64,000 bases of DNA, taken from assembly GCA_963848695.1 (NCBI GenBank), contig CAWKEI010000010.1, positions 4,905 through 68,904 on the forward strand, written 5' to 3'. This document shows, one piece after another, positions 12,117 to 42,081 of the stretch. The DNA comes from an uncultured Acidobacteriota bacterium (GTDB taxonomy: Bacteria; Actinomycetota; Acidimicrobiia; Spongiisociales; ZC4RG35). A program made the translations under genes and the position numbers. The notes beneath the pieces were generated by a model. That model was given only the letters and a program-made list of their open reading frames with translations. It made no database searches and was not told the origin of the DNA. How positions within the stretch are numbered: the first letter of the stretch is position 1; each line of letters starts with the position of its first letter.

Positions 12117-12174
12117 CGATCCAGGCTAGGGCCGGCTCCACAGTTTTTGCCGATGGCAGTTGGAGTTTCCAAAC

Positions 12175-12203: not shown

Positions 12204-12236
12204 CGCCCGCGGTGGTGTCCATCGACCCGCAGAGGC

Positions 12237-13712: not shown

Positions 13713-13713
13713 C

Positions 13714-15908: not shown

Positions 15909-15940
15909 CGACGACGAACAACCGTCGTGTGCTGCCCGGC

Positions 15941-17258: not shown

Positions 17259-17270
17259 AAGTGGCTGTGT

Positions 17271-17372
17271 TTGATTGCCGGCCGACTTCGCCCTTCGGCA
17301 ACCCTCATGTCGCGAGGTGGGCCTCCTATCGCGTCATCACACCTCAGGGCGAACAGACGCCGGTCGGCCGGG
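17271..17372. repeat. ~100-nt hairpin-forming intergenic repeat, copy A, inserted between nuoK and nuoL
   Basis: The 24-nt 5' block TTGATTGCCGGCCGACTTCGCCCT and the 3' block GGGCGAACAGACGCCGGTCGGCCGG are shared with 55883..55986. The blocks can pair (CCGGCCGAC/GTCGGCCGG, TTCGCCC/GGGCGAA) around a ~52-nt variable loop. Confidence 0.5.
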
Positions 17373-17397
17373 GCTTCCGCCTCGCTGGAGATCGACC

Positions 17398-19425
17398 GTG
17401 AGCTGGATCATCGCGACTGAGGCGGAGCACGCGGTCGAGGCCGGTGTGACCGGTGGGTTCTGGGTGGACACCGCCGGGATCATGCTGCTCCTCCCCCTCG
17501 TCGCCTTCCTGCTCATCCTCGCTGTCGGGAAGAGGATGAAGTACCACGGAGCCGAGATCGCCATCGCGGCGCTCGCCATCAACAGCCTCTGGGCCACCGT
17601 CCTGTTCGTCATGAACATGACCGACGGCGTCCTCGCCCAGGAAACCTTCGAGATCGCCTCGATCGGGAGCAATCTCGTCTTCGAGCTGGGATGGGTGGTC
17701 GACGGTCTGTCGATCATGATGTACTTCTTGGTCAACGTGGTCGGCCTGATCGTGTTCATCTACGCGGTCGGCTACATGAAGGGCGACATCAGGGTCGATT
17801 GGTTCTTTGCCGCTTTCTCCCTTTTTGCCGGCTCGATGCTCATCCTGGTGGGCGCCCCCAACCTGATCCAGCTGATCATCGGGTGGGAGGGGGTCGGTCT
17901 CGCTTCCTACTTCCTGATCGGCTTCTACTGGGAGGACATGGCCAACGTGAACGCGGGCAACAAGGCGTTCATGGTCAACAAAGTGGCCGACGTCGGGCTG
18001 ATCCTGGGGGCGATCATCCTCGGGCTCGCCATCGGCACGTTTGACTTCTTCGACATGAGCACGGCTGCCTTCGAGCACTCCGAGCCCCTTGGCGCAGTTG
18101 CCGTCGTCGGTGGAGCCCTGCTCTTCTTTGGAGCGATGGGCAAGAGTGCCCAATTCCCCCTTCACATCTGGCTCCCCGACGCGATGGCCGGCCCGACCCC
18201 GGTCTCGGCGCTGATGCACGCGGCCACCATGGTCACTGCCGGGATCTATCTGATGGGTCGGGTGTTCCCCCTCTTCGAGTACCTCGCCTTCGACATCAGG
18301 CCCTGGATGGTGGCGATCGGGGCCATCACGCTCTTCGGCGTCGGTCTCCTCGCCCTGGTGGCCGACGACATCAAGAAGGTGCTCGCCTATTCCACCGTCT
18401 CCCAGCTCGGGTACATGATGACCGCGGTGGCAGCGGGCGGCTACACGGCCGGCCTCTTCCACCTCTTCACCCACGCCTTCTTCAAGGCACTTCTCTTCCT
18501 TGGGGCCGGGGCGGTGATCCACGCCGTCCATTCCAACAACATGAGCGACATGGGAGGTCTGCGCAAGGCGATGCCCCGCACCTACTGGACCTTTGTCGTC
18601 GGCTCCCTCTCTCTAGCTGGGATCATCCCCCTGGCCGGGTTCTGGTCCAAGGACGAGATCCTGGTTGCCCTGGGTCACGAGGGTTACGTCGCCGTGATGT
18701 GGATCGCCATCGCCGGCGCCTTCGTCACGGCTTTCTACATGACCCGAGCGGTGGCCCTCACCTTCCACGGGGAGTACAAGGGCCAGGGCCACCCCCACGA
18801 GGCACCCGCCATCATGACCGTGCCTTTGGTCTTCTTGGCCATACCGTCGATCCTCTTCGGGTTTTTCAATGTCCCCGGCTGGGAGATCCCCGGCATCGGG
18901 AACTTCAGCCAATGGCTGGCGGTGCGGGTAGTCCCGATGGGCGACGAGCACGCCGAGGCGATCGATCTGGTTCTGGCCGGGAGCGGGTTGTTCGCCGCGC
19001 TCCTCGGCATCGCTCTGGGGTGGATGGTCTGGGGCAAGGACCGGGCGACTCAGGCGGAGCGGGACCGCTTCGAGGTCCCGGCGCTCTATCCGCTGCTGCG
19101 CAACAAGTACTACGTCGACGACCTCGCCGATGGGATCACCGCCGGGACGATGGGCCCGGTGGCCCGGTTCATCAACTGGGTCAACGACTACGTGATCGAC
19201 TGGATCGTCAACGGTGTGGCCTTCCTCACCAAGGGTCTGGGCTCTTTCGTCTACGGCGTGGTCGATCAGCGCGGGGTCGACGGTGTGATCCATGGTCTTG
19301 GCGCCGGGGCGGACGGCGCCGGATCGGCCCTACGGCGATTGCAGACGGGCCGGATTCAGCAGTACGCGGCGTCGTTCGTCGGGGGCGCCCTGGTCTTGAT
19401 CGTCCTGTTCGTGTTCGTGATATAG
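17398..19425 (+). CDS. nuoL: NADH-quinone oxidoreductase subunit L (antiporter-like)
   Basis: 676 aa from GTG (VSWIIATEAE). The upstream part of track ORF 17275.. is translation of the repeat element. Typical NuoL TM architecture with C-terminal long helix region. Confidence 0.9.
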   Translation: MSWIIATEAEHAVEAGVTGGFWVDTAGIMLLLPLVAFLLILAVGKRMKYHGAEIAIAALAINSLWATVLFVMNMTDGVLAQETFEIASIGSNLVFELGWVVDGLSIMMYFLVNVVGLIVFIYAVGYMKGDIRVDWFFAAFSLFAGSMLILVGAPNLIQLIIGWEGVGLASYFLIGFYWEDMANVNAGNKAFMVNKVADVGLILGAIILGLAIGTFDFFDMSTAAFEHSEPLGAVAVVGGALLFFGAMGKSAQFPLHIWLPDAMAGPTPVSALMHAATMVTAGIYLMGRVFPLFEYLAFDIRPWMVAIGAITLFGVGLLALVADDIKKVLAYSTVSQLGYMMTAVAAGGYTAGLFHLFTHAFFKALLFLGAGAVIHAVHSNNMSDMGGLRKAMPRTYWTFVVGSLSLAGIIPLAGFWSKDEILVALGHEGYVAVMWIAIAGAFVTAFYMTRAVALTFHGEYKGQGHPHEAPAIMTVPLVFLAIPSILFGFFNVPGWEIPGIGNFSQWLAVRVVPMGDEHAEAIDLVLAGSGLFAALLGIALGWMVWGKDRATQAERDRFEVPALYPLLRNKYYVDDLADGITAGTMGPVARFINWVNDYVIDWIVNGVAFLTKGLGSFVYGVVDQRGVDGVIHGLGAGADGAGSALRRLQTGRIQQYAASFVGGALVLIVLFVFVI

Positions 19426-19441
19426 GAGAGGTAGAGAGCAA

Positions 19442-21058
19442 ATGGAATTGTTCGAAACGTGGGCCCTCACCCTCATCGTGTTCTTGCCGCTGGCCGGTGT
19501 GCTCCTGATCGGCATCATCCCGAAGACGAACGAGATGGCCCTGAAAGGCACGGCACTGCTGGTCAGCGTGGCCGCGTTTCTTCTCTCCCTGGCGGTGATC
19601 TCACAATTCGATTTCTCGGGGGTCCCCTACAACACCTACCAGTTCGAAGTCAACGAAACCTGGATCGGGGCGATCAACGCCAACTATCACCTCGGTGTCG
19701 ACGGGATCAGCCTTCCCCTCCTCGTCCTCTCCACATTCGTGATGGTGCTGTCGGTCATCTACAGCTGGAACCACTGGGAGGAGCCGCACAACCCCAAGGC
19801 CTTCCTGATCCTCATGCTGATCCTCGCCACCGGGCTCAACGGCACCTTCCTCGCCCTCGATCTGGTCCTCTTCTTCATTTTCTTCGAAGTGGTGCTGCTC
19901 CCGATGTACTTCATGATCGGGATCTGGGGCGATCGCAGCCCGCGGGCGATCCCCGGTTACGGGCGTGAGGTGCAGACCCGTCTCTACGCCGCGATCAAGT
20001 TCTTCCTCTTCACACTGTTCGGTTCCGCCTTCATGCTGCTGGGGTTCCTCGCCCTCTATTTCGAGTCGGGCAACTCGGGCGGCGAGCGCACCTTCGACAT
20101 CACGCAACTGACCGAGCTCGGGGCCTCCGGCGCCTTCACCGGGAGATTCGCCTTCCTGGTCTTTTTCGCCATGTTCCTCGGGTTCGCGGTGAAGGTCCCG
20201 ATGTGGCCACTCCACACCTGGCTGCCCGACGCCCATACCGCTGCACCGACGGTGGGGTCGGTCCTCCTCGCCGCCATCATGCTGAAGCTCGGGTCATACG
20301 GATTCATCAGGATCTCCCTGCCCATCCTCCCCGAGGAGGCGGCCAGTTGGGCCCCCGCCATAGCCATCCTGGCCGTGATCGGCATCATCTATGGGTCGCT
20401 GGCCTGTCTCGCTCAGACCGACATGAAGCGGCTGATCGCGTTCTCCTCGGTCGGTCACATGGGCTTTGTGATGCTCGGGATCGCGACGATGACCGATGTC
20501 GGCATCAACGCCGCCATCATCGGGATGGTGGCCCATGGGCTCATCACCGGACTGCTCTTCTTCCTGGCCGGCTCGATGTCACATCGGTACCACACGAGAG
20601 AGATGTCCCGTCTCGGCGGCAACATGAAGCTGATGCCGGTCATGGGTGGGATCCTGGCCTTCACCGCCATGGCTTCCCTCGGGCTCCCCGGGTTGGCCGG
20701 CTTCTGGGGTGAGTTCATGTCGCTGATCGGCGCCTACAACCCCTTGGCGGGGCTGTCGTTGGGTGTTTTCCGCACCGCGATGGTGATCGGCGCGATCGGG
20801 ACGGTGCTGACGGCCGCGTACATGCTCTACCTGCTCCAGCAGGTCAACCTCGGTGAGCCGGGGGAGGAGTGGCAGGGACACAAGTTCCACGACGTCGACC
20901 GTTTCGAGATGACGGCGTGGGTCCCACTCATCGTCCTGATCGTGGTGATCGGTTTCTATCCCAAGGTCATCTTCAACGCCACCACGGATTCCGTCGTGTC
21001 GCTCGTGGACATGGTGTTCGGTTCCGACACCGTGGCATCCGTTGGGCGGGGAGGCTGA
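19442..21058 (+). CDS. nuoM: NADH-quinone oxidoreductase subunit M
   Basis: 538-aa antiporter-like subunit with conserved WLPDAHTAAPTVGSVLLAAIMLKLG segment. Confidence 0.9.
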   Translation: MELFETWALTLIVFLPLAGVLLIGIIPKTNEMALKGTALLVSVAAFLLSLAVISQFDFSGVPYNTYQFEVNETWIGAINANYHLGVDGISLPLLVLSTFVMVLSVIYSWNHWEEPHNPKAFLILMLILATGLNGTFLALDLVLFFIFFEVVLLPMYFMIGIWGDRSPRAIPGYGREVQTRLYAAIKFFLFTLFGSAFMLLGFLALYFESGNSGGERTFDITQLTELGASGAFTGRFAFLVFFAMFLGFAVKVPMWPLHTWLPDAHTAAPTVGSVLLAAIMLKLGSYGFIRISLPILPEEAASWAPAIAILAVIGIIYGSLACLAQTDMKRLIAFSSVGHMGFVMLGIATMTDVGINAAIIGMVAHGLITGLLFFLAGSMSHRYHTREMSRLGGNMKLMPVMGGILAFTAMASLGLPGLAGFWGEFMSLIGAYNPLAGLSLGVFRTAMVIGAIGTVLTAAYMLYLLQQVNLGEPGEEWQGHKFHDVDRFEMTAWVPLIVLIVVIGFYPKVIFNATTDSVVSLVDMVFGSDTVASVGRGG

Positions 21059-21061
21059 TCC

Positions 21062-22546
21062 TTGCCGTTCGAGATCGACTATCTGGCGCTCGCTCCGGAG
21101 CTGGTGGTGGTGGCCACCATGCTCGGTGTATTCGCCCTCGATCTCGTCCTTCCCCGGTCCAAGAAGTTCTGGACGGCGACCCTGGCAGTTGCGGGCACCG
21201 CTCTGGCCGCTGTCCCGCTGGTGATCCTGGCCGCCGAAGGGACGGTCAGGTCGATGTTCGACGGCTCCTATGTCGTCGACGAATTCGCAGTGATCCTCAA
21301 AGGCGTCTTCATCGTCTCGGCGTACATCGTGCTCCTTATGTCGCACCACTACATCGAGTCCGATCGCTACTACCAGGGCGAGTACTACTTCCTGCTGCTG
21401 GCGTCGGTGCTCGGCTCGCTGGTGATGGCATCGTCTCGCGACCTCATCATCCTGTTCATCGGCCTCGAGCTCACCACCGGCCCGCTCTATCTGCTCGCTG
21501 GTTGGAGGAAGGGCGACGCCAAGTCCAACGAAGCCTCGATGAAGTACTTCATCCTCGGGGTTCTCTCCACCGCGATCCTGCTCTACGGCATGTCGCTGCT
21601 GTACGGGCTCACCGGTGAGGTCACTTTCGCCGGTCTCGCCGAAGCGACCGCCGGCCTCGCCGACGAGCCGATCATGGTGGTGGCCCTCTTCGGGCTGATC
21701 GTCGGGTTCGGATTCAAGATCTCGGCGGTTCCGTTCCACTTCTGGGCACCCGACACGTATGAGGGCGCTCCCACCCCGGTGGCCGCCTATCTATCGGTCA
21801 ACTCGAAGGCAGCCGGCTTCGTCGCCTTCCTCCTGATCATGTACCAGGCATTGCCCGACATCTCCGAGGTGTGGGCGCCGGCCTTGTGGATCCTGGCGGT
21901 GGCCTCGATGACGGTCGGCAATCTGGCGGCTCTGCGCCAGACCAACATCGTCAGGCTGCTCGCCTATTCGTCCATCGCCCAGGCCGGGTTCATGCTGGTC
22001 CCCTTCGCCTCGGCCGCCGTGGCCGGCGCCGACCTGGCCGAGGCGTTTTCGGCGACCCTGGTCTACCTGGTGATCTATGCCGTGATGAACCTGGGGGCAT
22101 TCGCCGTGGTCATCGCCGGGGCGAGGAAGACCCGATCCGGAGAGATAGCGGATTGGGCGGGCCTCGCCCAGGTCGACGTCAGGCTGGGTGTCCTCGTGGC
22201 GGTGTTCTTCTTCAGTCTCGCCGGCATCCCGCCCCTGGCGGGCTGGTTCGCCAAGTTCGCCATGTTCCGCTCGGTGATCATCGCCGGCGGTACCGCCACA
22301 GTGGTCCTCGCCGCCATTGCCGCGGTGAACTCGGTGATCGCGTTCTACTACTACGCCCGGGTGGTGAAGTCGGTCTGGCTCGACGACCCGATCCGCGAAT
22401 TCGCTCCTGAGGCCGAGGCGGCGCCGGCCGGCTCGCTCCGGCTGGCCCTGCTGGTGTCTCTGACGATCACGGTCCTGGTCGGGTTCTTCCCGGCGATCGC
22501 CACTTTCATCGGAGAAGCCAGCCGGGTCATCGCCAGCGGCGGCTGA
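21062..22546 (+). CDS. nuoN: NADH-quinone oxidoreductase subunit N
   Basis: 494-aa antiporter-like subunit with FHFWAPDTYEGAPTPVAAYLSV motif. Last gene of the operon. Confidence 0.9.
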   Translation: MPFEIDYLALAPELVVVATMLGVFALDLVLPRSKKFWTATLAVAGTALAAVPLVILAAEGTVRSMFDGSYVVDEFAVILKGVFIVSAYIVLLMSHHYIESDRYYQGEYYFLLLASVLGSLVMASSRDLIILFIGLELTTGPLYLLAGWRKGDAKSNEASMKYFILGVLSTAILLYGMSLLYGLTGEVTFAGLAEATAGLADEPIMVVALFGLIVGFGFKISAVPFHFWAPDTYEGAPTPVAAYLSVNSKAAGFVAFLLIMYQALPDISEVWAPALWILAVASMTVGNLAALRQTNIVRLLAYSSIAQAGFMLVPFASAAVAGADLAEAFSATLVYLVIYAVMNLGAFAVVIAGARKTRSGEIADWAGLAQVDVRLGVLVAVFFFSLAGIPPLAGWFAKFAMFRSVIIAGGTATVVLAAIAAVNSVIAFYYYARVVKSVWLDDPIREFAPEAEAAPAGSLRLALLVSLTITVLVGFFPAIATFIGEASRVIASGG

Positions 22547-25984: not shown

Positions 25985-26045
25985 GTTTCCTTTCCACAGA
26001 TTCGTCGCCTCGTCAGTGTCTTAGAATGGGCGACTCCGGGTATCT

Positions 26046-27107
26046 GTGAGCCAACCTGTGAAAAAGCGTCTGATCATCATCGGTGCGGTTGTCGCCGTAC
26101 TGCTCCTCGGGACAGGAGCATTCTTTGCCATGTCCACCTGGGGAGATGTCAATCGGGTCAGCCTCGACCAAGAGCGGCCTCAGATCCAGGTTCCAGAGGA
26201 GGACGCGTCCGTCGACGAGTCGGATGCCGAAACCGACCTTCTGGGCTCCGCTCCGGCAGGCACCGAGGTGTACCTCCTGGTCGGCTCGGACTCGAGAGAT
26301 CATCTCGAGAGCGTCGAGGGTTTTGGCGACTTCGCCGGGCAGAGGGCCGACGTCGTGATGGTGCTGATTCGCCCCGCCGACGGGTCGAGAGCCGCCCTCC
26401 TGTCCCTTCCTCGAGATCTCCTCGTCGACAATGTCTGCCAACAGGGAGGCGAGCATCGTCTCAACGATGCCCTCCAGGGATGCTCGGCGGTCAACGGGGC
26501 CACGGCCCTGGCCATGACCGTGGAGTCGGTCATTGGCCAAAACGTGGATCATTTCGCATTGGTCGACCTGGCTGGTTTCCAGGAGGCTGTCGATGCGGTA
26601 GGCGGATACGAGATATGTGTCGAACGGGCGGTCCGCGATCAGAGGTCGCTGCTCGAGTTGCCGGCCGGGTGCACACTCGCCACCGGGGCCGAGACATTGG
26701 CTTGGTTGCGCTCGCGGAGCACCGAGGAGCTGACCGCCGAAGGATGGCGGGTCATGCCCGGTGTCAATGATCTGACCAGGAACCAGCGTCAGAGGGAATT
26801 CCTTCTCACCATGATGGGCCAGCTGTCCGATTTCGGTAGCCCCACCGCCATCGCCGATGCGGCGTCGACGATCGCGCCCTTCATCACTGTCGACTCCGAG
26901 CTGTCCTTCCTGGATGCGGTAGATCTGGCTTGGACGATGCGTGGGCTGAGCCGAGGCCACATCGACGAGCTGGAGATACCGGTCTCAGACGCGACCACGG
27001 CGTCTGGCGCAGCCGTACTCGTTGCTGGTGTGGACATCGCCGACCTGGTCGACGACTACCTCGCCCCGGAGATCGCCGAGGACGACTCCGGCGCTTTCGC
27101 TGGTTGA
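26046..27107 (+). CDS. LytR-CpsA-Psr (LCP) family cell-envelope phosphotransferase
   Basis: N-terminal TM anchor, YLLVGSDSRD and ADVVMVLIRP...LLSLPRDLLV LCP core motifs. Confidence 0.8.
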   Translation: MSQPVKKRLIIIGAVVAVLLLGTGAFFAMSTWGDVNRVSLDQERPQIQVPEEDASVDESDAETDLLGSAPAGTEVYLLVGSDSRDHLESVEGFGDFAGQRADVVMVLIRPADGSRAALLSLPRDLLVDNVCQQGGEHRLNDALQGCSAVNGATALAMTVESVIGQNVDHFALVDLAGFQEAVDAVGGYEICVERAVRDQRSLLELPAGCTLATGAETLAWLRSRSTEELTAEGWRVMPGVNDLTRNQRQREFLLTMMGQLSDFGSPTAIADAASTIAPFITVDSELSFLDAVDLAWTMRGLSRGHIDELEIPVSDATTASGAAVLVAGVDIADLVDDYLAPEIAEDDSGAFAG

Positions 27108-28099
27108 GGCTCCCGCCCGGTCAGATCGAGACCAAGCGATTCCCCATCGTCGGCGAGCGAACGCCATCGGCCGAGCTGGCCGACCCAGGGTGGTGGCGGC
27201 TCGACCTGACCGGGTCCGTCCACAGCCCGATCACCCTCGATCTCGATGCCTTCCTCGCCCGCGCGGTCCAGGAGCTCGTGTTCGACATCCATTGCGTCAC
27301 GAGCTGGTCTCGCTTCGGCTCCACCTGGACCGGGCTCCCGTTGGGAATCCTCCTCGACGAAGCCGGGCTCCTCGAGCAGGCTCGTTTCGTCTCCTTCGAG
27401 GCCTACTCGGAGCGCGGCCACCACACGTCGCTTCCACTCGATGTGGCGCGGGATGACAGCTGGCTGGTGCATTCGTTCGAAGGGAAACCACTCGAGGTCG
27501 GCCACGGTGGGCCGGTAAGGGTCGTCACCCCCAGCCGTTACTTCTACAAGTCGATCAAGTGGGTGCGGCGCATCGTGGTTCTCGAGGAAGACCGGCTCGG
27601 GTGGTGGGAGGAGGGCTCCTATTACCACAACAACGCCGATCCTTGGGCGGGCGACGAACGATTCACCACCGGCTCGATCCGCCCCGACCAATTGGACCGG
27701 TTCGTCCATGCCCGGTCTTACGACAAATACCGGAGCCGGGTGATGATGGGGCTCGATCTGCGAGGTTGGGTGCCCGCCAAAATGGACCTGCGACGTCTCT
27801 ATCTGAAGAACTGCGACATCCGCGGCGTCGATCTGGCCGGGGCGGATCTGCGTGAGTCGAATCTCTCCCTCAGCGACCTGCGGGGGGCTGATTTGCGGGG
27901 CGCCGATCTCTCCGGTTCCGATCTCGAAGGAGTCAATTTCTCCGGAGCCAACCTGGCCGGGTCCGATCTGAGCGCGACGGCTCTCTCCGCTACTCGTTTC
28001 GTCGACGAAACAGGTGGCGCCATCCTCGAGGGCGCCAGGTTCGACGGCTCGTATGGGCTGGTCGAAGCCCAAGAGGAGTACGTCGCCAGTCGCGCCTAG
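27104..28099 (+). CDS. sulfite-oxidase-like molybdopterin-binding oxidoreductase domain fused to a C-terminal pentapeptide-repeat domain
   Basis: The N-terminal ~200 aa carry the Mo-site motif HCVTSWSRFGSTWTGLPL (Cys ligand) and RVVTPSRYFYKSIKWVRRIVV. The C-terminal ~90 aa are tandem A(D/N)LxG pentapeptides (DLRGADLRGADLSGSDLEGVNFSGANLAGSDL). The start (TTG overlapping the LCP stop) is uncertain. Confidence 0.6.
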   Translation: MRLPPGQIETKRFPIVGERTPSAELADPGWWRLDLTGSVHSPITLDLDAFLARAVQELVFDIHCVTSWSRFGSTWTGLPLGILLDEAGLLEQARFVSFEAYSERGHHTSLPLDVARDDSWLVHSFEGKPLEVGHGGPVRVVTPSRYFYKSIKWVRRIVVLEEDRLGWWEEGSYYHNNADPWAGDERFTTGSIRPDQLDRFVHARSYDKYRSRVMMGLDLRGWVPAKMDLRRLYLKNCDIRGVDLAGADLRESNLSLSDLRGADLRGADLSGSDLEGVNFSGANLAGSDLSATALSATRFVDETGGAILEGARFDGSYGLVEAQEEYVASRA

Positions 28100-32764: not shown

Positions 32765-32885
32765 GAGAGTTCTCCCCGCATCAACCGGGGGTTGCCGAAG
32801 GGCGAAGTGGGCCGGCAACAACAGAGGCGAGCTTTCAGTACGTATGTTGAGTTGCCGATAAGACCTGACAAGTCCAGGGAGCCAG

Positions 32886-34916
32886 TTGGACCTCAACACC
32901 CCCGAGCTGATGCGGATATTCCGCGACGAGCTGGAAGATCGTTCCGGTCGCTTGGTCGCGGGCGCGATCGCTCTTCGCCAAAACGATCTCGATGATGCAC
33001 GCCTCCAGAACCTGATCCGGGACGCCCACACCATCAAGGGCTCGGCGGGCCTGCTCGGATACGACGACATCAGACAGGTCGCCGCACGTCTCGAGCATCT
33101 CTGGAAGCAGATCTCCGAGGGATACTCGCCGCCCAGCGACGTTATCGTGGCCATGGAGGCAGGTGCCGGGCGTCTTCTTCCTTCGCTCGATGGGGACGAT
33201 GCTGATCTCGCCTCCATCGCCGACAAGCTCCTGCTTGCAGAGCGACCCGAGGACATGGGCGAGGGAGCTGATTGGTCCCCGCCGGCCGAGGTCATCCCAT
33301 TGCGGCGTCCCGAGCCAGGCAGTCTCGGGGGGCTACTCACCTCCGTGTCCGACTCCCTGCTCGGCGGGTCGACCCGGGTCGACACCGGTGAGCTCTACCG
33401 CCTCATCAACCGCATCGTCGAGGTCTCGCTCGATTCCGAAGCGCTGGCCGACCTCTCACTGCTCTCGATCGAGGGATCGGACCCGGCTCTCTTCAGGAAA
33501 TCCTGGCGTCAGCAATTGGAGAGGCTCGCCGCCTCCGTCTCCGAGATCCAGGATCAGGCCGTTGCCCTGGCCAACATCCCGTTCCGGGAAGCCACTGCCA
33601 CCTTCCCCCAATTCGTTCGTTACCTGGGCCGACGGATGGGCAAAGACGTCCGCTTCGAGCTCGTGGGCGACGACGTGCAACTCGATCGGCAGATCGTCGA
33701 CCTACTCCGCGAGCCGCTGCGCCACCTCCTGGTCAATGCCATCGACCATGGGATCGAGCCCACGCAGGTCCGTGTCGCCGCCGGGAAGAGGGCAACCGGG
33801 ACGGTGAGTGTCGGCGCCGAGATCATCGACGAGCGAGTCGAGGTGTCGGTCTCGGACGACGGCCGCGGGATCGATTGGGACAAGGTGGCCGACGTGGCCA
33901 CCGAGCGAGCCATCCCCTTCGTCTTCTCCGACCTGAGCCCCGTTCTGTTCCAACCCGGCTTCACGACTGCCGACCTGGTCACCGACTTCTCCGGTGCGGG
34001 TGACGGGCTGGCGGCAGTGCGGGACATCGTGGAGAAGGTCAACGGCGTGGTCCACGTCGAGAGCCCCGAGGGCATGGGGACACGCGTCACCATGACGCTG
34101 CCCCTCTCAATGGTGCTGCAGAACGTGGTGGTGGTCGCTACCGGGGACCAGTTCTGGGGTCTTCCCGAGGCGTCGATCGAGGCGGCCATGCCGCTCACCC
34201 GGGCCGAGATCAGCCCAACCGATGGCGGCCGGGAGGTCAGATTCCAGAGCAGGGAGATCCCATGTGTCTCGTTGGCGAAGGCAATGGGTGTGACCAACCC
34301 GGGAGATGAGTCCGAGCTGTTGGTCATCAACACCAGGTTCGGGCTGGTGGCCATCACCGTCAGCGAGCTCATCGATCGTCGTCGTGTTGCGGTGAAGAAC
34401 CTCGGCCCGATCCTGGAAGGAAGCGGCCACGTGACCGGAGCGGCCCTGCTCGGAGGTGGCCAGGTCCTCGTTGTCCTCGACCCGAATTTCCTTGGCTATC
34501 TCGCCAAGCGGCGCCCAGGCGTCGTTGGGCGCCGCCCCCGGATCCTGGTTGTCGACGATTCGGCCGGCGTCCGCCAGCTCCTCTCGGCCACCCTGAACGG
34601 GGCCGGCTTCGAGGTCGAGGTGGCCGCAGGGGCACGTGAGGCGATGATGGCAATGGTCAATGTGGGTTTCGAGGCGATGGTCATCGACTTTTCGATGCCC
34701 CGGTCCAACGGCGTCGAGCTGGTTAGGGCGATGCGCGCCTCCGACCAGAATGTCCCCATCGTCATGGTCTCTGGTGTTGCGACTCAGGACGAGAAGCAGG
34801 CGGCTTGGGAAGCCGGGGTTGATGCGTACCTGGACAAGTTCGACCTTCGCCAGGGCGTGCTCACCGAGACCCTGCGCCGGATGATCGGCGTCGACGAGGG
34901 TGCCGACGCCGGCTGA
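32886..34916 (+). CDS. CheA-like hybrid histidine kinase: Hpt - HATPase_c - CheW-like - receiver domain
   Basis: Hpt HTIKGSAGLLGY. N-box LVNAIDHGIE, G1 DDGRGID, G2 GAGDGL. CheW-like block (VVVATGDQFWGLPEASIEAA...VAITVSELIDRRRVAVKNLG). C-terminal REC domain (ILVVDDS...MVIDFSMP...AYLDKF). Confidence 0.75.
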   Translation: MDLNTPELMRIFRDELEDRSGRLVAGAIALRQNDLDDARLQNLIRDAHTIKGSAGLLGYDDIRQVAARLEHLWKQISEGYSPPSDVIVAMEAGAGRLLPSLDGDDADLASIADKLLLAERPEDMGEGADWSPPAEVIPLRRPEPGSLGGLLTSVSDSLLGGSTRVDTGELYRLINRIVEVSLDSEALADLSLLSIEGSDPALFRKSWRQQLERLAASVSEIQDQAVALANIPFREATATFPQFVRYLGRRMGKDVRFELVGDDVQLDRQIVDLLREPLRHLLVNAIDHGIEPTQVRVAAGKRATGTVSVGAEIIDERVEVSVSDDGRGIDWDKVADVATERAIPFVFSDLSPVLFQPGFTTADLVTDFSGAGDGLAAVRDIVEKVNGVVHVESPEGMGTRVTMTLPLSMVLQNVVVVATGDQFWGLPEASIEAAMPLTRAEISPTDGGREVRFQSREIPCVSLAKAMGVTNPGDESELLVINTRFGLVAITVSELIDRRRVAVKNLGPILEGSGHVTGAALLGGGQVLVVLDPNFLGYLAKRRPGVVGRRPRILVVDDSAGVRQLLSATLNGAGFEVEVAAGAREAMMAMVNVGFEAMVIDFSMPRSNGVELVRAMRASDQNVPIVMVSGVATQDEKQAAWEAGVDAYLDKFDLRQGVLTETLRRMIGVDEGADAG

Positions 34917-34971
34917 GGATCGAAATCGCGCCCCTTCAGGTAGCTTTTGAGCAGAGCGAAAGAGACGTGAG

Positions 34972-35877
34972 TTGCCCCAGATACCGGATTCACTGAGCTG
35001 GCTGTCCCTCGCCCTCGCCGTGGTGGGTGTGGTGGGCGTCGTCTGGGCCATCGCCATCACCCGTCAGGGCCGGCAGCGCGAGCGTGAGGTGATGCGTCTC
35101 TCCGAGGAGGCGCACCGGATCAAAGACGAGTTCGTGGCCATGGTGAGCCATGAGCTGCGAACTCCCTTGACCTCGATCGCCGGATTCGCCGACACATTGG
35201 TGGAGTCGTGGAAGGACCTGCCCGACGAAGAGGTCGACGAGTTCCTCGGGATCATCAACCGCCAGTCGATATACCTGAGCGACCTGGTGGAGGACGTTCT
35301 GGTCATCCCGCGTCTCGAGGCGGACCGGCTCCGCTTCCACCCCGAGTTGTTCGATCTCGGCGATCTCCTCGGCGATGTTGCCAAGATGGTGTTCCCGACC
35401 GGCGGGAGGAAGAGCGCAGTCGTCTCGCTTCCCGACGGGGTGAGGGTCCGGGCCGATCGCCGCAGAGTTCAACAGGTGATCCGGAACCTGATGGAAAACG
35501 CCCGCAAGTACGGCGGAGATCAGGTGATGGTCGAAGGCTTCGTCCTCGGGGATCAATACCTCGTTGTCATATCCGACAACGGGCCCGGCGTCCCCGACGA
35601 AGAGACACAGCGTGTGTTCGAGAACTTCGAACAGGTATCGAAGGGCGACAGCAGGGAGGCGACCGGGATCGGCTTGGGTCTTCCCATCGCCCGGCGACTC
35701 GCACGCGCCATGGGAGGAGAGGTTTGGTATGAGCGCCGGTTCCCGACAGGTGCCCGCTTCTGCTTCTCACTTCCGCTGCGTCGCCGGTCGGTCATGGGCG
35801 AGGACGAGGTGCAGGAGGTGGTCGATCTGGATGCCACCGCCTCGGTGGAGTTCGACGACACGGTGCTCGCCAACTGA
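34972..35877 (+). CDS. membrane-anchored sensor histidine kinase (HisKA + HATPase_c)
   Basis: One N-terminal TM helix, H-box VSHELRTPLTSI, N/G boxes NLMENARKYGG and DNGPGVP...GIGLGL. Confidence 0.8.
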   Translation: MPQIPDSLSWLSLALAVVGVVGVVWAIAITRQGRQREREVMRLSEEAHRIKDEFVAMVSHELRTPLTSIAGFADTLVESWKDLPDEEVDEFLGIINRQSIYLSDLVEDVLVIPRLEADRLRFHPELFDLGDLLGDVAKMVFPTGGRKSAVVSLPDGVRVRADRRRVQQVIRNLMENARKYGGDQVMVEGFVLGDQYLVVISDNGPGVPDEETQRVFENFEQVSKGDSREATGIGLGLPIARRLARAMGGEVWYERRFPTGARFCFSLPLRRRSVMGEDEVQEVVDLDATASVEFDDTVLAN

Positions 35878-35924: not shown

Positions 35925-38153
35925 ATGCAAGCAGAGTGGTTCATCGACGACGTACCCGCGGAGTCTCCGCTCTTCGCCGACCTCAACCCATCGCAGCGTG
36001 AAGCCGTGGCGGCAACCGAGGGCCCGGTGCTCGTTGTCGCCGGGGCCGGTTCCGGGAAGACCCGCGTCCTCACCTACCGGATCGCCCACCTGATCCGGGA
36101 TCTGAGGGTGGCACCCGACGCCATCCTCGCCATCACCTTCACCAACAAGGCTGCCGACGAGATGAGGAACCGGGTGGGGGCGCTGGTGGGTGGCGCTATC
36201 CGATCTATGTGGGTCTCCACCTTCCATTCGGCCTGTGTCCGCATTCTCCGTCGGGAGGCGTCACGACTCGGTTACCGCTCAGGGTTCTCCATCTACGACG
36301 ATGCCGATTCGCTGCGTTTGATCAACCTCGTCCTGAAAGATCTCGATGTCGATCCGAAGCGCTTCCCACCCAAGGCCATGCGGGCGGTGATTTCCAAGGC
36401 CAAGAACGAGCTGGTCGACTACGAGGCCTTCGCCGACCAGGGCGACGGGTTCTATCACGAGCAGGTTGCCGACGTCTATCGCCTGTATCAGCAGCGCCTG
36501 CTCGAGGCCTCGGCGATGGATTTCGATGATCTCCTCATGGTCACGGTGGAGCTGTTCGGCGCATTTCCCGAGGTGCTGGCCGCCTACCAGGACCGCTTCC
36601 GTTACGTCCTCGTCGACGAGTACCAGGACACCAATCGGGCCCAGTACATGCTGGTCAAGCAGCTCACCGCGAGTCATCGCAATGTGTGTGTGGTGGGCGA
36701 TTCCGACCAGTCGATCTACCGGTTCCGCGGGGCCGATATCCGCAATATCCGCGATTTCGAAGTCGACTACCCCGACGCCCGCATCGTCATCCTCGATCAG
36801 AACTACCGCTCCACCGAGACGATCCTCGATGCAGCCAACTCGGTCATCGCCAACAACACCAAGCGGACTCCCAAAAACCTGTGGTCGGATCGGGGACGCG
36901 GTGTGCCAATTCTTCGCTTCGAGGCGGAAGACGAGCACGACGAGGCCGGTTATTTGGCGGACGAGATGGAGCGGCTCCAGGGCGAGGGTTTCAATCTCTC
37001 CGACATGGCCGTCTTCTATCGCACCAACGCCATGTCCCGTGTGATCGAAGACGTGCTGGTGAGAAGGGGCGTGCCCTACACCGTGGTCGGCTCGGTCAAG
37101 TTCTACGATCGCAAGGAGATCAAGGACGCCAATGCCTATCTCCGCGCAGTGGTCAACCCGGCGGACGAAGTTTCCTTGAAGCGAATCATCAACGAGCCGA
37201 GGCGGGGGATCGGTGACACCACGATTGCCCATATCGACCGGTTCAGCCAGAGCCAGAGGATCGGTTTTGCCGAGGGCCTGCGGCGGGCACCGGAGATCCA
37301 TCAGCTCAACGCCAGGGCGCAGACAGCCATCGCCGAGTTCGTGGCGATCATGGACAAGCTCCGCGAAGTGACCGAGGACGAGGGGGTGAGAGCCGGGGTC
37401 GAGTCGGTCCTCGTCGACACCGGGATGCTGGCGGCCCTGGAGGCGGAGAAGACGATCGAAGCCATGGGCAGGGTGGAAAACCTGCGTGAGCTGGTCGGCG
37501 TGGCATCCGAGTTCGAGACCTCGAACGAGGGAGCGGTGATCGGAGACGATGAGTTCGACTCACTCGACAACCTGCGCCGCCTCGAGGTGTTCCTGGAGGC
37601 CACTGCGTTGGTCGCCGACATCGATGAGTGGGAGGAAGGCGCCGGCGCGGTCACCTTGATGACCCTGCACACAGCCAAGGGTCTGGAGTTCCCTGTCGTG
37701 TTCATCGTGGGCATGGAGGACGGGGTCTTTCCTCACATGAGATCGCTCGGTGACCCGAGCGAGCTGGAAGAGGAGCGGCGGCTCGCCTATGTCGGGATAA
37801 CCCGAGCCCAGGACCGGCTGTACCTCACCTCGGCCTGGAGCAGGATGCTGTTCGGAGGGTCCAACTACAACCCGCCATCGAGATTCCTCACCGAGGTCCC
37901 GGACGGGCTCATGGAGAAAGCGGGGAAACGCCAGCGGCGGACTGCCTCAGAGCGAGCCGCGGCCAACGGCCCACGCACCACCGTCGACGCGACCCAGATC
38001 GGGCCCGGGGATCGGGTTCGACACGACAAATGGGGTTTGGGCACGGTACGTGAAGTCGTGGGGAGCGGGGAGCTCGCCGAGGCCGAGGTCATGTTCGACA
38101 CCCAGGGCAAAAAACGCCTGCTCCTGGCGTGGGCGCCACTGGAGCGGGCCTGA
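35925..38153 (+). CDS. pcrA: ATP-dependent DNA helicase PcrA/UvrD
   Basis: Walker A AGAGSGKT, helicase motifs (DEYQDTN, TLHTAKGLEFPVVF), 742 aa. Confidence 0.9.
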   Translation: MQAEWFIDDVPAESPLFADLNPSQREAVAATEGPVLVVAGAGSGKTRVLTYRIAHLIRDLRVAPDAILAITFTNKAADEMRNRVGALVGGAIRSMWVSTFHSACVRILRREASRLGYRSGFSIYDDADSLRLINLVLKDLDVDPKRFPPKAMRAVISKAKNELVDYEAFADQGDGFYHEQVADVYRLYQQRLLEASAMDFDDLLMVTVELFGAFPEVLAAYQDRFRYVLVDEYQDTNRAQYMLVKQLTASHRNVCVVGDSDQSIYRFRGADIRNIRDFEVDYPDARIVILDQNYRSTETILDAANSVIANNTKRTPKNLWSDRGRGVPILRFEAEDEHDEAGYLADEMERLQGEGFNLSDMAVFYRTNAMSRVIEDVLVRRGVPYTVVGSVKFYDRKEIKDANAYLRAVVNPADEVSLKRIINEPRRGIGDTTIAHIDRFSQSQRIGFAEGLRRAPEIHQLNARAQTAIAEFVAIMDKLREVTEDEGVRAGVESVLVDTGMLAALEAEKTIEAMGRVENLRELVGVASEFETSNEGAVIGDDEFDSLDNLRRLEVFLEATALVADIDEWEEGAGAVTLMTLHTAKGLEFPVVFIVGMEDGVFPHMRSLGDPSELEEERRLAYVGITRAQDRLYLTSAWSRMLFGGSNYNPPSRFLTEVPDGLMEKAGKRQRRTASERAAANGPRTTVDATQIGPGDRVRHDKWGLGTVREVVGSGELAEAEVMFDTQGKKRLLLAWAPLERA

Positions 38154-38590
38154 GCTTCAGGGCGGTCATCGAGTCGGCGCCGCGGGGTGGCGCGTATGTG
38201 CGCATCCCCAAAGACCAGGTCGATGGGCTCGGCGGAGGCGGGAGGATCCCGGTGCGGGCCAGCTTCGACGGAGTCGAGTATCGGGGCAGCATCGTCCGCA
38301 TGGGTGGGGAATCGGTGCTCGGGGTTCTCAAGGAGATCCGAGAGGGGCTGGGCAAGGGCCCCGGCGATGAGGTCGAGGTGACAGTTGAGCTCGATGTCGA
38401 AGAGCGTGAGGTCGAGGTCCCGGTCGAGTTGGCGCGGCTGCTCGCGGCCAACCCGGCGGCCCGCAAGGCATTCGAGAGTCTGAGCTATTCCCATCGTCGC
38501 GAGCATGCCCAACACGTAGCGGAGGCCAAGCAGGCGGAGACCAGGGACCGCCGGGCCTACAAGACCGTTGAGGACCTCACTCGAGGTTGA
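38129..38590 (+). CDS. DUF1905/YdeI-like small protein
   Basis: FRAVIESAPRGGAYVRIP...FDGVEYRGSIVRMGG pattern of DUF1905 beta-barrel proteins. Start uncertain. Confidence 0.4.
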   Translation: MGATGAGLSFRAVIESAPRGGAYVRIPKDQVDGLGGGGRIPVRASFDGVEYRGSIVRMGGESVLGVLKEIREGLGKGPGDEVEVTVELDVEEREVEVPVELARLLAANPAARKAFESLSYSHRREHAQHVAEAKQAETRDRRAYKTVEDLTRG

Positions 38591-38628
38591 TGCCGGGCGG
38601 GGGGTGCTGCCGGTTCTAACTTGTCGAT

Positions 38629-38955
38629 GTGTTTCGGGATCTTGTCAGGACTTTGCGGGAGGTGTGGGCAGAGCCGGCGGGCCGGGTCTTGGTCTTCGGT
38701 GTCATGGCGATCGTCGCCACGGGGACGACCTTCTACAGCATCGTGGAGAAGTGGTCGATCATCGACGCCCTCTACTTCACCGTGATCACCCTGACCACCA
38801 TCGGGTACGGCGACCTCCATCCCACCAACGACGTCTCCAAGATCTTCACAATTTTCTTCGTCCTCGCTGGGGTGAGCTTCATCCTCGGCTTCCTCAACTT
38901 CATCATCGGCCGCACCGTCAAGGACCGAGTCGATAGGAAGCAGAAGGAGCAGTAG
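38629..38955 (+). CDS. minimal two-TM potassium channel (108 aa), canonical TTIGYGD selectivity filter, no regulatory domain
   Basis: TM1 VLVFGVMAIVATGTTFYSIV, pore helix WSIIDALYFTVITL, filter TTIGYGD, TM2 IFTIFFVLAGVSFILGFLNFIIG, 15-aa basic C-tail. Confidence 0.75.
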   Translation: MFRDLVRTLREVWAEPAGRVLVFGVMAIVATGTTFYSIVEKWSIIDALYFTVITLTTIGYGDLHPTNDVSKIFTIFFVLAGVSFILGFLNFIIGRTVKDRVDRKQKEQ

Positions 38956-38962
38956 GCGGCGG

Positions 38963-40876
38963 CTACTGGCTGTCCGAGGCGACCCGGCCCATCGAGCCCA
39001 CCTGACCGGCGTCGTTACCTGCCTTGATCCTTGCCCCACGATCGAGCTCGCGCCGAACAAGGGTGCCATGCAGGTCCGACATCTGCGTGTCGGTCACCTC
39101 GGGAAGGTCGAAAGCGGCGCGGACGAAGGCCGCGGTGTCGGCCCGGTAGTCGTGGCCGAAAGACTTGAACTCACCGGGAACCGTCACCATGGCGTTCATT
39201 GCGTCGACGATGACCTGGGTGAACGTGATGACCGGGGACCACTTCATCGACTCCGGCACCCCCCTTCCCCGCCGGCCGTCGAGCCACGGCGGTCGCTTCA
39301 CCGCCATCCGCAGCGACATCTGTGCGATCGGGTCGTTGTCGTGATCGACGATCACCGATCGCAGGTTCTTCCGCTCTTCCTCGCCCAAAGCCTGGTATTG
39401 CTCGAAATGGTCGAAGGGGACCACTGTGCCCGCAGGGGTGAGCGGGTTGCGCCCTTCCCGCATCCCGGTCTTGGACCACCGGGCCAACCCGGGCAGACCG
39501 AACCAGAGGGCCCGGTGGATGCCGTAATGATCGAACCCCTCGATCCCCTGATGCATCACGACATCCGAGCTGGACCATGCCCCGAGACTCTCTCCGAACA
39601 CGAGGACCTTTGGCCGCTTCTCCTCGGGGACCGACCGGAGTCGTTGTTTGACGCCCCACAGCAACTGCCTGAATTGGGCTCGCCCCAGTGAGACGCCCTG
39701 CACCTCGAGGAACGAGGGAGCCTTGCCATACTGGATGCACGCTGTGGCGATGTCGCCTCGGGTGAGGATCTCGGCCGACTCGATCACGGTGTGATCCACC
39801 CAGCCGGTCCCGGTGGGGGACACCAGCAGCAGATAGCTCCGATCGAATGCGCCGAGCCGCTCCATCTCGTTGAGGGCGAGCTCCGACCTGCCGGTGGCAT
39901 AGATCGGTTCGTTGTCGACGCCGACATAGGCCCGAATCGGATGGGCGATGGCAGGTTTTCCCATCGTTTGTTCGATGACCTCCGGCGTGACGACCTCGGA
40001 TGCGTACCTTCGTCCCTGGAGGCCCATTTGGTCATAGGGGGAGATGCTGTTGGGGCCGCCGGATACGTGCTCATTGCTGGGCGGTGTGGCGAAAGCCGGC
40101 TCGATCTTGGAGTTGGCTCGGGAGATCTTCGTCACCAGCCCTCGGTAGAGCGCCACGGCGCCGACCCCCCACAGTGCGAGGTTGAGACCCCTCCCGATGA
40201 CCGCGTGACCCGCCCCGCTACCCATGTAACTCACCATCGAGTTTCTGGAACTGGCATAGCCCCGGCCCATGAGGCGTCCCCCGTTGGCCACCAGCGCTGC
40301 GATGCCAACCGACGCGAAGATGTTGGCCGGCTTGTCGTCATCGGTCCACTTGGCCACGACTCCTTGCCGGGTCTCCAGCTCCTTGGACCATCTCGTCATC
40401 GCGTATCCGAAACCACCGAGGCCGGTGACGATCGGCACGATCGGAGTCTCGATCTTCTCGCTGACATCGGTCGCTGCCTCATAGATGATCCCGCCGACGG
40501 CAGCCACGTTTATCAGCTTGCCGGCTGTGCGAAGCGATGCCCTGCCGGTGGACTCGTCCTCGGTCTCGGAGATCCGTCCCAGGGCTGCGCCTCCAACGGC
40601 CATCGCGGCGCGGGCGCCTATCCGCCAGGCCAGAGGGGAGGTCTCGGGGGCGAATCGACGGGCGATCGCATCGACGCTGGTGCCGATGGCGCGTGCCGAG
40701 ATCACCGCCAGGCCTCCGGCAATGCCCTGGTGGACTGAGGAGCGCGGCATCAAGGAGGGCCCGAACGAGTCGAGGGCGGCGCCTGTTATGAGCGGTGCTG
40801 CGGGCCCGCTGGTCAATGGGTTGAGCCGGTCGGCCAGTTTGAGCAGCCAGTTGAGATACGCGGAGGTGTCGGCCAT
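38963..40876 (-). CDS. membrane-associated alpha/beta-hydrolase family protein (Abhydrolase_9-like, N-terminal multi-TM domain)
   Basis: 637 aa. N-terminal hydrophobic domain then hydrolase fold with nucleophile elbow VFGESLGAW (G-x-S-x-G). Confidence 0.55.
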   Translation of the reverse strand: MADTSAYLNWLLKLADRLNPLTSGPAAPLITGAALDSFGPSLMPRSSVHQGIAGGLAVISARAIGTSVDAIARRFAPETSPLAWRIGARAAMAVGGAALGRISETEDESTGRASLRTAGKLINVAAVGGIIYEAATDVSEKIETPIVPIVTGLGGFGYAMTRWSKELETRQGVVAKWTDDDKPANIFASVGIAALVANGGRLMGRGYASSRNSMVSYMGSGAGHAVIGRGLNLALWGVGAVALYRGLVTKISRANSKIEPAFATPPSNEHVSGGPNSISPYDQMGLQGRRYASEVVTPEVIEQTMGKPAIAHPIRAYVGVDNEPIYATGRSELALNEMERLGAFDRSYLLLVSPTGTGWVDHTVIESAEILTRGDIATACIQYGKAPSFLEVQGVSLGRAQFRQLLWGVKQRLRSVPEEKRPKVLVFGESLGAWSSSDVVMHQGIEGFDHYGIHRALWFGLPGLARWSKTGMREGRNPLTPAGTVVPFDHFEQYQALGEEERKNLRSVIVDHDNDPIAQMSLRMAVKRPPWLDGRRGRGVPESMKWSPVITFTQVIVDAMNAMVTVPGEFKSFGHDYRADTAAFVRAAFDLPEVTDTQMSDLHGTLVRRELDRGARIKAGNDAGQVGSMGRVASDSQ

Positions 40877-40916: not shown

Positions 40917-42081
40917 TCAGCCTAAGTGGTTGGGGTCCGGGCTTGAGAGGTGGGGAGAAGGGGAAACTGTTCCGGTCCAATCAGGAGGTGCCCGGTTGAC
41001 CCGGCGGAATCTGATTCGTCCGTGGTCGGGGTGGTGGTAGGGCTGGAAGCCTTGTTGGTGGATGACGATCTGGTGGTGGTACCAGCAGAGGGTGATCAGA
41101 TTGTCGGGGTCGGTGGGTCCGCCTTGTGACCAGGGGATGAGATGGTGGATTTGGAGCCGGTTTCGGCTGTCGCATCCGTCGGCGCGGCAGGTGTTGTGGT
41201 CGCGGTGGAGGATGGCCCGTCGGAGGGCGGGTGGGATGGTCCTGTTGCTGTCGTCCGTAACGCATCGGGGTGCCGTCTTCGGCCCGGGCGGTGATCTCGG
41301 TGATGGCATCGCAGAGGATGGCTTCTAGAGCGTCCCGGCCGATCCTGGGCCCGGCCTCCAGCACCACACCTGCTTGACCGTTGGAGGGGCCGGCTTGGGT
41401 GGCGTCGACGAATACGGTGAGTTGGGCCGGGGGCGGCTCGTCGCTGACACAGAGCTCGGCGAGGGCGAGTGCTTTCCGCCATGAGCTATCCCCTCGGCTC
41501 CCGTCGGGGAGGAGAGGCAGCTGGTCGGCTTTCTCTGAGATCACCTTGTCGACCAGGGCACCGGTGGCTCCGTCCAATCCTCCCCACAGTCTCCACCAGG
41601 ATTCGTCCAGGGAGGGTTGCATCACCAGAAACTGGTCTTTGGTGGTCCGGTGTTCGTCCTCGGCGCTGATCCGGGCCCGGTGGGCTGCTTCTCGACGGAC
41701 TCCGGCCACATCGAGATGCTCCAGTAGCCCAACGTTCTCGGGGATCCGGGAGAGGGCTTCGAGACGGTCGAAGCTGATCTCACCCGAAGCCAACGCTTCC
41801 CTCAGCTCGGGTCGGTCCACCGTCCGTCGCATCGTCCGCACCAGGTTCTTCGCCGAATCGGGATGGAAATCGAGCCGAGCTGTCGTCCACTCCGACAGGT
41901 TCCGGCAACCATCCGCAGTTGCCACCTGCCGGTAGTCGAGCTCCTCGAGATCCAGTATCTGATCGTGGGTGAGCCGGCTGATCTCGGCCTGGCGAGCCAA
42001 CATTCGCTGTTCCAGCTGGTCGGTCGAAAGTAGCGTGCGCTCCATACCTCCGAACATACGTTCGGGGTGGGACAGAAACAA
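40917..42081 (-). pseudogene. DUF222 / HNH endonuclease (actinobacterial 13E12-repeat-like gene) disrupted by a frameshift at ~41241-41250
   Basis: DUF222 N-domain in ORF 40981..42081, whose last ~75 aa are Pro/Arg-rich nonsense. The HNH motif (CRADGCDSRNRLQIHHLIPWSQGGPTDPDNLITLCWYHH) lies in the other frame (40917..41309). Removing one A from CAGCAACAGG restores ...GRQHRTIPPALRRAILHRD... Confidence 0.6.

Follow-up and report, generated by a model that had tools for sequence, protein, structure and literature searches.

A CheA-type hybrid kinase without clustered che partner genes, and its small histidine kinase neighbour, in uncultured Acidimicrobiia

What does a chemotaxis-type kinase do at a locus that encodes none of its usual partners? 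The question is raised by two adjacent genes in a 64-kb stretch of DNA from an uncultured member of Acidimicrobiia (the whole stretch is called the window below). The first encodes a hybrid kinase in which CheA-type domains are fused to a receiver (REC), hereafter CheA-REC; the second encodes a small HisKA histidine kinase (HK), here called HK301. Both open reading frames (ORFs) lie where a sequence-only reading had placed them: HK301 begins 55 nucleotides (nt) downstream of CheA-REC, guaA (GMP synthase) stands upstream of the pair and pcrA, for a PcrA/UvrD helicase, downstream (Pfam). The domain layout of CheA-REC is ordinary and its association with a second kinase has precedents, but those known already, in the Che3 systems of Rhodospirillum centenum and Myxococcus xanthus, sit within full che clusters. 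New here is an Acidimicrobiia-specific family of CheA-REC proteins encoded outside any che cluster; its companion gene varies and in this lineage is a sensor-less HisKA kinase. Its unusual traits are the fixed position among housekeeping genes over deep divergence, the complete lack of clustered partners and the interchangeable companions. We found no description in the literature of this family or of a cluster-less CheA in Acidimicrobiia.

A complete CheA-type kinase with a fused receiver

Four Pfam domains were found on CheA-REC, all of them above the curated gathering cut-offs of Pfam: Hpt (residues 7-73, E 4e-12, 46.6 bits, cut-off 24.6), HATPase_c (residues 274-408, E 2e-18, 67.2 bits), CheW (residues 414-534, E 2e-10, 40.9 bits against a cut-off of 23.5) and Response_reg (residues 553-651, E 1e-20). 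Residues 160-537 align with residues 261-641 of Escherichia coli CheA and also match the P3-P4-P5 crystal construct of Thermotoga maritima CheA, with E of about 1e-50, and P5 aligns with the P5 of the T. maritima structure 1b3q. The AlphaFold2 model, built from 32 family sequences (mean predicted local distance difference test score, pLDDT, 75.8), lays the chain out as a P1 bundle, a linker, P3, P4, P5 beta-barrels and a receiver fold, within the limits given in Table 1. In a Foldseek comparison with PDB the top matches were the CheA cores 3ja6, 6s1k and 1b3q (E about 1e-27, target template modelling (TM) score about 0.70), and TM scores against P4 structures were 0.83-0.90. Pfam, the CheA alignment, the structure model and Foldseek agree on the CheA-type architecture that had been read from the letters alone; the fused receiver is likewise real (Pfam, structure model), and the middle region taken there to be CheW-like is indeed a CheW-like domain.

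No P2 (CheY-binding) domain is present in the modelled CheA-REC. A disordered linker between P1 and P3 occupies that place; it is the least conserved region of the protein and varies in length among family members. The assignment of P3 draws on the alignment with E. coli CheA and on the hairpin in the model, since H-kinase_dim of Pfam has no match in the window protein at E <=0.01; one relative (L010) has a sub-threshold match at E 0.011. The NCBIfam equivalogs for CheA were missed as well, NF041336 with 246.8 against 950 bits and NF007835 with 155.2 against 793 bits. None of this makes the layout exotic: P2 is missing in more than half of CheAs, a REC is present in about 34%, and REC-fused, P2-less CheAs are known in the flagellar classes F3 and F5 (PMC10782961). 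According to the same source, the commonest reported role of CheA-fused receivers is that of a phosphate sink, and CheA, itself lacking a sensor domain, senses through dedicated chemoreceptors (PMC10782961).

The residues on which catalysis would depend are in place. His48, the phospho-acceptor of P1 (codon 33027-33029), lies within HTIKGSAG and is invariant across family alignments of 12, 24 and 32 sequences. In P4, the N box HLLVNAIDHGIE, the G1 box DDGRGID, the F box FQPGFTT and the G2 box GAGDG are all intact in the alignment with T. maritima CheA. In REC, D557, D558, the phospho-acceptor D601 (codon 34686-34688), S629 and K651 do not vary across the family alignments, and a comparison of domains across the family identifies REC as the most conserved one. 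Mean pairwise identity in the window clade is 0.78 for P5 versus 0.72 for P4, and among distant members 0.56 versus 0.63; judged from these values, P5 is under purifying selection. Taken together, the sequence describes an apparently active, complete CheA-type kinase (P1, P3, P4 and P5, no P2, and a C-terminal receiver), with elements predicted to serve ATP binding by P4, dimerisation through P3, autophosphorylation at His48 and acceptance of phosphate at Asp601.

Two other descriptions of the protein were considered and rejected. It is not a decaying relic, because every catalytic residue is invariant, the core and the receiver are undamaged and P5 equals P4 in conservation, from which it also follows that P5 still has a job to do. 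Nor is it an F5-class CheA, since F5 kinases carry an extra CheW domain, two in all, and the protein here has just one (PMC10746217).

The second protein, HK301, is a much simpler kinase. Its single N-terminal hydrophobic helix (about residues 11-29, nt 35002-35058) is preceded by at most about 10 residues, and the H-box follows some 30 residues past the helix. Pfam recognizes HisKA (residues 51-117, 64.6 bits) and HATPase_c (residues 162-270, 89.5 bits), and finds neither an extracytoplasmic or periplasmic domain, nor HAMP, PAS or GAF, nor a receiver (no Response_reg match). The H-box HELRTP, with His60 (codon 35149-35151), is conserved in six lineages and retains the residues tied to both kinase and phosphatase activity; the E/DxxT/N motif of HisKA has been connected with these two activities (PMC3510030). 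Having no sensor domain of its own, HK301 would need a protein partner or a membrane cue.

One family, one position and changing companions

The window was searched for chemosensory partners with Pfam, on essentially all likely genes, and with local hidden Markov models (HMMs), run on six-frame ORFs of at least 60 aa and derived from confirmed instances of the methyl-accepting chemotaxis protein (MCP) signalling, CheW, CheB methylesterase and CheR domains. The 64 kb yielded no MCP, CheW, CheB, CheR, flagellar or pilus gene; the only receiver is the one fused to CheA-REC and the only HisKA kinase is HK301. The lack of che partners holds beyond this genome: with flanks of up to 10 kb on each side, none of the 19 family loci, which add up to 296 kb, encodes MCP, CheW, CheB or CheR. 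As a control, the same HMMs were applied to the non-family CheA-REC loci among the matches listed, where at least one che partner appeared at 67 of 73, and at 47 of 48 when the locus was at least 15 kb long. Since partners are detected so regularly in the control, their lack is a real property of the family and not a failure of detection. The absence of MCP, CheW, CheB and CheR genes that had been noticed around the pair extends to the whole window and to the flanks of the 18 other family loci.

That position is remarkably constant. CheA-REC lies between guaA and pcrA in 19 of 19 family loci, which span identities of 36-100%, and where the contig suffices the wider block reads trpS, (Rce1-like), IMPDH-like, guaA, the module, pcrA, B12-binding, sucC, sucD. 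The flanking guaA is still about 72% identical where CheA-REC is down to 42-50%. In the basal clade, one metagenome-assembled genome (MAG) keeps the module on a 1.70-Mb contig.

The nearest CheA-REC proteins (68-100% identity) all come from MAGs of uncultured Acidimicrobiia, under the source labels 'response regulator', 'hybrid sensor histidine kinase/response regulator' and 'CheA'. An exhaustive HMMER search over 1.84 billion cluster representatives returned a graded series of about 55 clusters, falling from 65% to about 35% identity and from 911 to about 285 bits, below which generic CheA-REC hybrids form a plateau at about 250 bits; in a neighbour-joining tree the graded series is one clade apart from the generic proteins. 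A profile search started from distant members again returned almost only Acidimicrobiia MAGs, and a profile search of genome contigs gave at least 7 family loci, all of them in MAGs, taxonomy being resolved to the level of class. The family is thus a lineage-specific, vertically inherited, large clade of uncultured Acidimicrobiia, about 30% identical to anything outside it. Among the matches listed, the best-scoring outside relatives (29-34% identity) are WspE-type genes in Wsp-like clusters of Chloroflexia and Actinomycetota. Two chloroflexian loci (L018, L048) and one of Actinomycetota (L080) have such clusters, composed of MCP, CheW, CheA-REC, CheB, CheR, CheW and REC-GGDEF; at another locus (L011), CheA-REC is accompanied by a PilB-like ATPase, MCP and CheB.

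What varies within the family is the companion. The window clade (L001-L008, CheA-REC identity 68-73%) has the small HK, as do L009 (50%), where its frame overlaps that of CheA-REC by 11 nt, and the basal L086 (36%), where the overlap is 14 nt. L010 (42%) has a REC-GAF gene and then an HK. L084, L085 and L090 (about 40%) carry REC-GAF, again overlapping CheA-REC, the contig of L084 stopping before the HK position. L087, L088/L089 and L091 (about 39%) have no companion, and their CheA-REC is 790-829 aa long; an extra 100-150 residues in the Pro/Ala-rich P1-P3 linker account for this length in L087 (607-2979), L088 (10001-12427) and L091 (10001-12490). CheA-REC is therefore retained without the HK in the subclades of L085, L087, L088, L090 and L091. 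The pairing of the two kinases, noticed first in one genome, proves to be evolutionarily conserved, with the overlapping frames of L009 and L086, and CheA-REC and the small HK form an apparent operon in the window and basal lineages.

Signals of transcription around the pair are inconspicuous. Promoter and terminator scans gave nothing exceeding shuffled expectation; no sigma-70-like promoter or terminator was called in the intergenic region after guaA. The TTG start of CheA-REC is consistent with the N-termini of homologues.

REC-GAF, about 330 aa long, is a response regulator whose C-terminal domain is GAF-like. Its gene overlaps the CheA-REC stop by 4 nt, so that the two are translationally coupled in L010, L084, L085 and L090. 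Source annotations of the protein are inconsistent (PleD, OmpR-family, PilG/PilH, CheY-like), and its C-terminal half has no match in PDB or NCBIfam, just weak or precomputed GAF matches. REC-GAF is abundant in Acidimicrobiia metagenomes (1136 matches at E <=1e-5 among the candidates scored), but the 64-kb window has no homologue, and neither do the flanks of 10 kb on either side in L001, L002, L007, L008, L009 and L086. In most lineages the presence of an HK is independent of that of REC-GAF, and the loci that bear an HK have no receiver besides the CheA-fused one, save for the REC-GAF of L010. The view that the pair lacks any recognisable output partner accordingly stands for the window and not for the sister lineages, in which a REC-GAF is coupled to CheA-REC. 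Weak tblastn matches to REC-GAF beside non-family CheA-REC genes (L018, L048, L063, L066) were discarded, as those checked were the REC of REC-GGDEF proteins.

Table 1. Features of the CheA-REC/HK301 locus and of the REC-GAF genes in sister lineages. Positions are those of the window unless a locus is named.
Feature	Position	Strand	Description and basis
Intergenic region, guaA stop to CheA-REC start	32765..32885	+	121 nt; GGGAG Shine-Dalgarno-like motif just 5' of the TTG start
CheA-REC hybrid kinase gene	32886..34916	+	676 aa; ORF list, Pfam, alignment, AlphaFold2, Foldseek
P1 (Hpt) five-helix bundle	32901..33227	+	residues 6-114; Pfam Hpt; helices with pLDDT ~90
P1-P3 linker, disordered, variable	33237..33386	+	residues 118-167; pLDDT <50
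P3 dimerisation helical hairpin	33384..33572	+	residues 167-229; CheA alignment; two long helices in the model
P4 ATP-binding catalytic domain	33573..34109	+	residues 230-408; Pfam, alignment, Foldseek
P5 CheW-like domain	34116..34478	+	residues 411-531; Pfam CheW; beta-barrel in the model
Receiver (REC)	34539..34886	+	residues 552-667; Pfam, family alignments
Spacer between CheA-REC and HK301	34917..34971	+	55 nt; no terminator-like hairpin
HK301, small membrane-tethered HisKA histidine kinase	34972..35877	+	301 aa; Pfam, cross-lineage alignment
REC-GAF	L010 4973-5965
REC-GAF	L085 3296-4282
REC-GAF	L090 12106-13101
REC-GAF	L084 2131-2304

What the two kinases may do together

Several known systems resemble this module in part. 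WspE, of the Pseudomonas Wsp system, which belongs to the alternative cellular function (ACF) class, has the same order of Hpt, P3, P4, P5 and C-terminal REC, and its output is not motility. Loci of the Wsp type, however, place an MCP, two CheW, CheR, CheB and a REC-GGDEF next to the kinase; all of these are absent from the family loci, where the neighbour is instead a HisKA kinase (a REC-GAF in sister lineages). In R. centenum, CheA3 (itself a CheA-REC) cooperates with the classical kinase CheS3 in a non-motility output, the phosphate passing through a receiver: CheA3 phosphorylates the receiver carried by CheS3, and CheS3 then phosphorylates CheY3 (PMC3868531). HK301, unlike CheS3, has no receiver, so a transfer would have to run from HK301 to the CheA-fused REC, and the Che3 genes, unlike those of the window locus, are clustered with MCP3, CheW, CheR3 and CheB3 (PMC4436063). 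M. xanthus offers a chemosensory CheA3 and a classical kinase, CrdS, that jointly control one regulator, CrdA (PMC3147164), an arrangement that the L010 order of CheA-REC, REC-GAF and HK resembles; there, however, the regulator is an NtrC-type transcription factor accompanied by MCPs, CheW, CheB and CheR, and the window has no stand-alone regulator. Finally, the CheAY of Helicobacter and Campylobacter (class F3) is also a P2-less CheA with a C-terminal receiver, in that case a phosphate sink (PMC10782961), but it serves flagellar chemotaxis together with CheW or CheV and MCPs, a context not seen at this locus, and its sequence is only distantly related.

We hypothesize that the module is a lineage-specific, non-motility phosphorelay of two kinases, in which the small kinase would act on the CheA-fused receiver. 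This is the reading that we favour, tentatively and at somewhat less than even confidence. The module would then control a non-flagellar output in an ACF-type manner, and HK301 and the CheA-like kinase would communicate via the fused receiver. HK301 would phosphorylate or dephosphorylate Asp601; the state of Asp601 would in turn govern how active the CheA core is, or drain or feed the phosphoryl group on His48 of P1, and P1 would pass phosphate on to a response regulator encoded elsewhere. In the sister lineages, the regulator served by P1 would probably be the translationally coupled REC-GAF. A step from HK301 to Asp601 is the simplest model because the CheA-fused REC is the sole receiver in reach and HK301 is co-inherited with it, being coupled in two lineages; an HK adjoins CheA-REC in the window clade, in L009, in L010 and in the basal L086. 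That the best-scoring outside relatives among the matches listed belong to Wsp-like ACF clusters fits an output other than motility, as the sequence-only reading had supposed. Its further idea of an unconventional pathway fared less well, since the layout is common (PMC10782961) and a CheA-REC working with a second kinase is precedented (PMC3868531, PMC3147164).

A number of observations weigh against a phosphorelay of this kind. The link between HK and REC is one of adjacency alone, and the HK is not essential to the CheA-like kinase, given that several subclades keep CheA-REC without it. The gene order of L010 is equally compatible with REC-GAF as the cognate regulator of the HK. Helix alpha-1 of REC differs between lineages with an HK (RQL..A.L) and those without (.QV..G.L), and this split was tried and rejected as evidence of co-evolution: both groups are probably monophyletic, so it amounts to about one event and not to independent support. 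P5 is strongly conserved, which suggests that it still has a CheW or receptor-like partner. Receptors may be encoded elsewhere in the genome, because Acidimicrobiia are among the actinobacterial classes with flagellar gene clusters in 41-91% of species and the class carries the F5 system (PMC10746217). The earlier remark that many Actinobacteria lack chemotaxis does not transfer to this class, and for the same reason MCP and CheW genes could lie outside the window; Ilumatobacter, Desertimonas and Microthrix are without flagella clusters and F5 (PMC10746217).

Other explanations were weighed as well. Both kinases may act on one stand-alone regulator, REC-GAF or a similar protein, without talking to each other and with the fused REC as a sink, as in the Che3 model of M. 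xanthus; in the window lineage the shared regulator would be encoded elsewhere. We regard this convergent control as unlikely, if still deserving serious attention. The order of genes in L010 reads as a classical regulator-kinase pair beside a CheA-like gene, REC-GAF is translationally coupled to CheA-REC at four loci, CrdS, CrdA and CheA3 are a direct precedent (PMC3147164), and a sink is what fused receivers are most commonly reported to be (PMC10782961). Yet the window and the examined flanks of its relatives contain no REC-GAF, and HK and REC-GAF mostly occur independently. A conventional chemotaxis CheA, the sole or the second one of its genome, is somewhat less probable still: P5 would couple to unlinked CheW and MCPs for flagellar or pilus motility, REC would be a sink as in CheAY and HK301 would be unrelated. 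The four intact core domains, the purifying selection on P5, the REC-fused P2-less CheAs of F3 and F5 (PMC10782961) and the frequent flagellation and F5 systems of Acidimicrobiia (PMC10746217) all agree with it. It is difficult to reconcile, however, with che partners beside 67 of the 73 listed controls and beside none of the family loci, with a separate clade whose nearest relatives among the matches listed are Wsp-like rather than F-class, with a single CheW domain where F5 kinases have two (PMC10746217), with equivalog scores far under the NCBIfam cut-offs, and with a fixed housekeeping position and retention on a 1.70-Mb contig that do not look like those of an accessory motility gene.

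The same lack of partners, if it extended to the entire genome, would open the way to a CheA that needs no receptor. With no MCP or CheW available, P5 might dock on the dimeric DHp four-helix bundle of the small kinase in place of a receptor tip, or on REC-GAF in sister lineages; we consider this improbable. If true, the module would be a minimal two-kinase switch and a core non-motility regulator across a class-level lineage, and its kinase the first of CheA type demonstrated to function outside a chemoreceptor array. More doubtful still is that the two genes are chance neighbours, HK301 being an orphan sensor kinase with a distant regulator and the adjacency a by-product of a stable syntenic block. 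The whole region is strongly syntenic regardless, 55 nt separate the genes in the window, and several subclades lack the HK while keeping CheA-REC. On the other hand, the adjacency holds over CheA-REC identities from 36% to 100%, the basal clade included, the frames overlap in L009 and L086, no terminator separates the genes, no further receiver is encoded nearby, and a sensor-less HK301 needs a partner or a membrane cue. The phosphorelay through the fused receiver remains our preferred reading among these.

The surrounding genes and the meaning of the family

The genes of the window include a nuo operon, an ABC transporter, trpS, a guaB3-like gene, guaA, pcrA, sucCD, and genes of histidine and tryptophan catabolism. 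Scans for tRNA and Rfam families in the window gave no matches. The nuo row (12147-22546) runs A, C, D and then H, I, J, K, L, M and N, with no E, F or G between D and H; 12602-13071, the expected place of nuoB, fell outside the coverage of the scan of this row. It would be a complex-I-like operon without the NADH-oxidising module at that locus.

Upstream of the pair, a GAF-HisKA-HATPase kinase of 583-585 aa precedes the LytR-family gene in L001 (1433-3184) and in L002 (1252-3009), in the latter placed between NUDIX and LytR. The gap between NUDIX and LytR in the window is just 61 nt (25985-26045), and the kinase is therefore missing at that position. Next to the LytR-family gene, 26930-28099 encodes a molybdopterin-binding oxidoreductase domain and C-terminal pentapeptide repeats in one protein, conserved in L001 and L002. 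The true start is probably further downstream than that of the longest ORF, whose first 178 nt coincide with the end of the LytR-family gene and whose homologues align only from residue 65 on.

Downstream, the interval between pcrA and a transaldolase gene (38129-40876) varies among relatives. The window encodes a DUF1905/OmdA protein there, together with a small Ion_trans_2 K+ channel and an Abhydrolase_9 membrane protein of 637 aa; L001 has just the channel and a hypothetical gene in this interval, and L002 has nothing. In L090 and L091, B12-binding and sucCD genes follow pcrA directly. On the minus strand of the window, at 40917-42081, a 366-aa ORF without Pfam matches is overlapped in its 3' part by a 130-aa HNH endonuclease ORF (PF01844, E 2.4e-10) that runs in another frame. 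This looks like a frameshifted mobile gene of the DUF222 + HNH type (compare L090), inserted in the window genome only; L001 and L002 have no HNH-type gene between pcrA and the transaldolase gene.

How much the family means depends on the receptors. If these prove to be encoded elsewhere, what is left is an accessory chemosensory kinase in an unusual place; complete genomes without receptors and CheW would make the finding far more significant. In either case our survey flags an abundant signalling family, so far annotated only generically, in widespread uncultured environmental Actinomycetota. The family bears on how chemosensory parts are reduced and rewired into ordinary two-component circuits, and it is a natural test case for asking if an input other than a chemoreceptor array can drive a CheA core.

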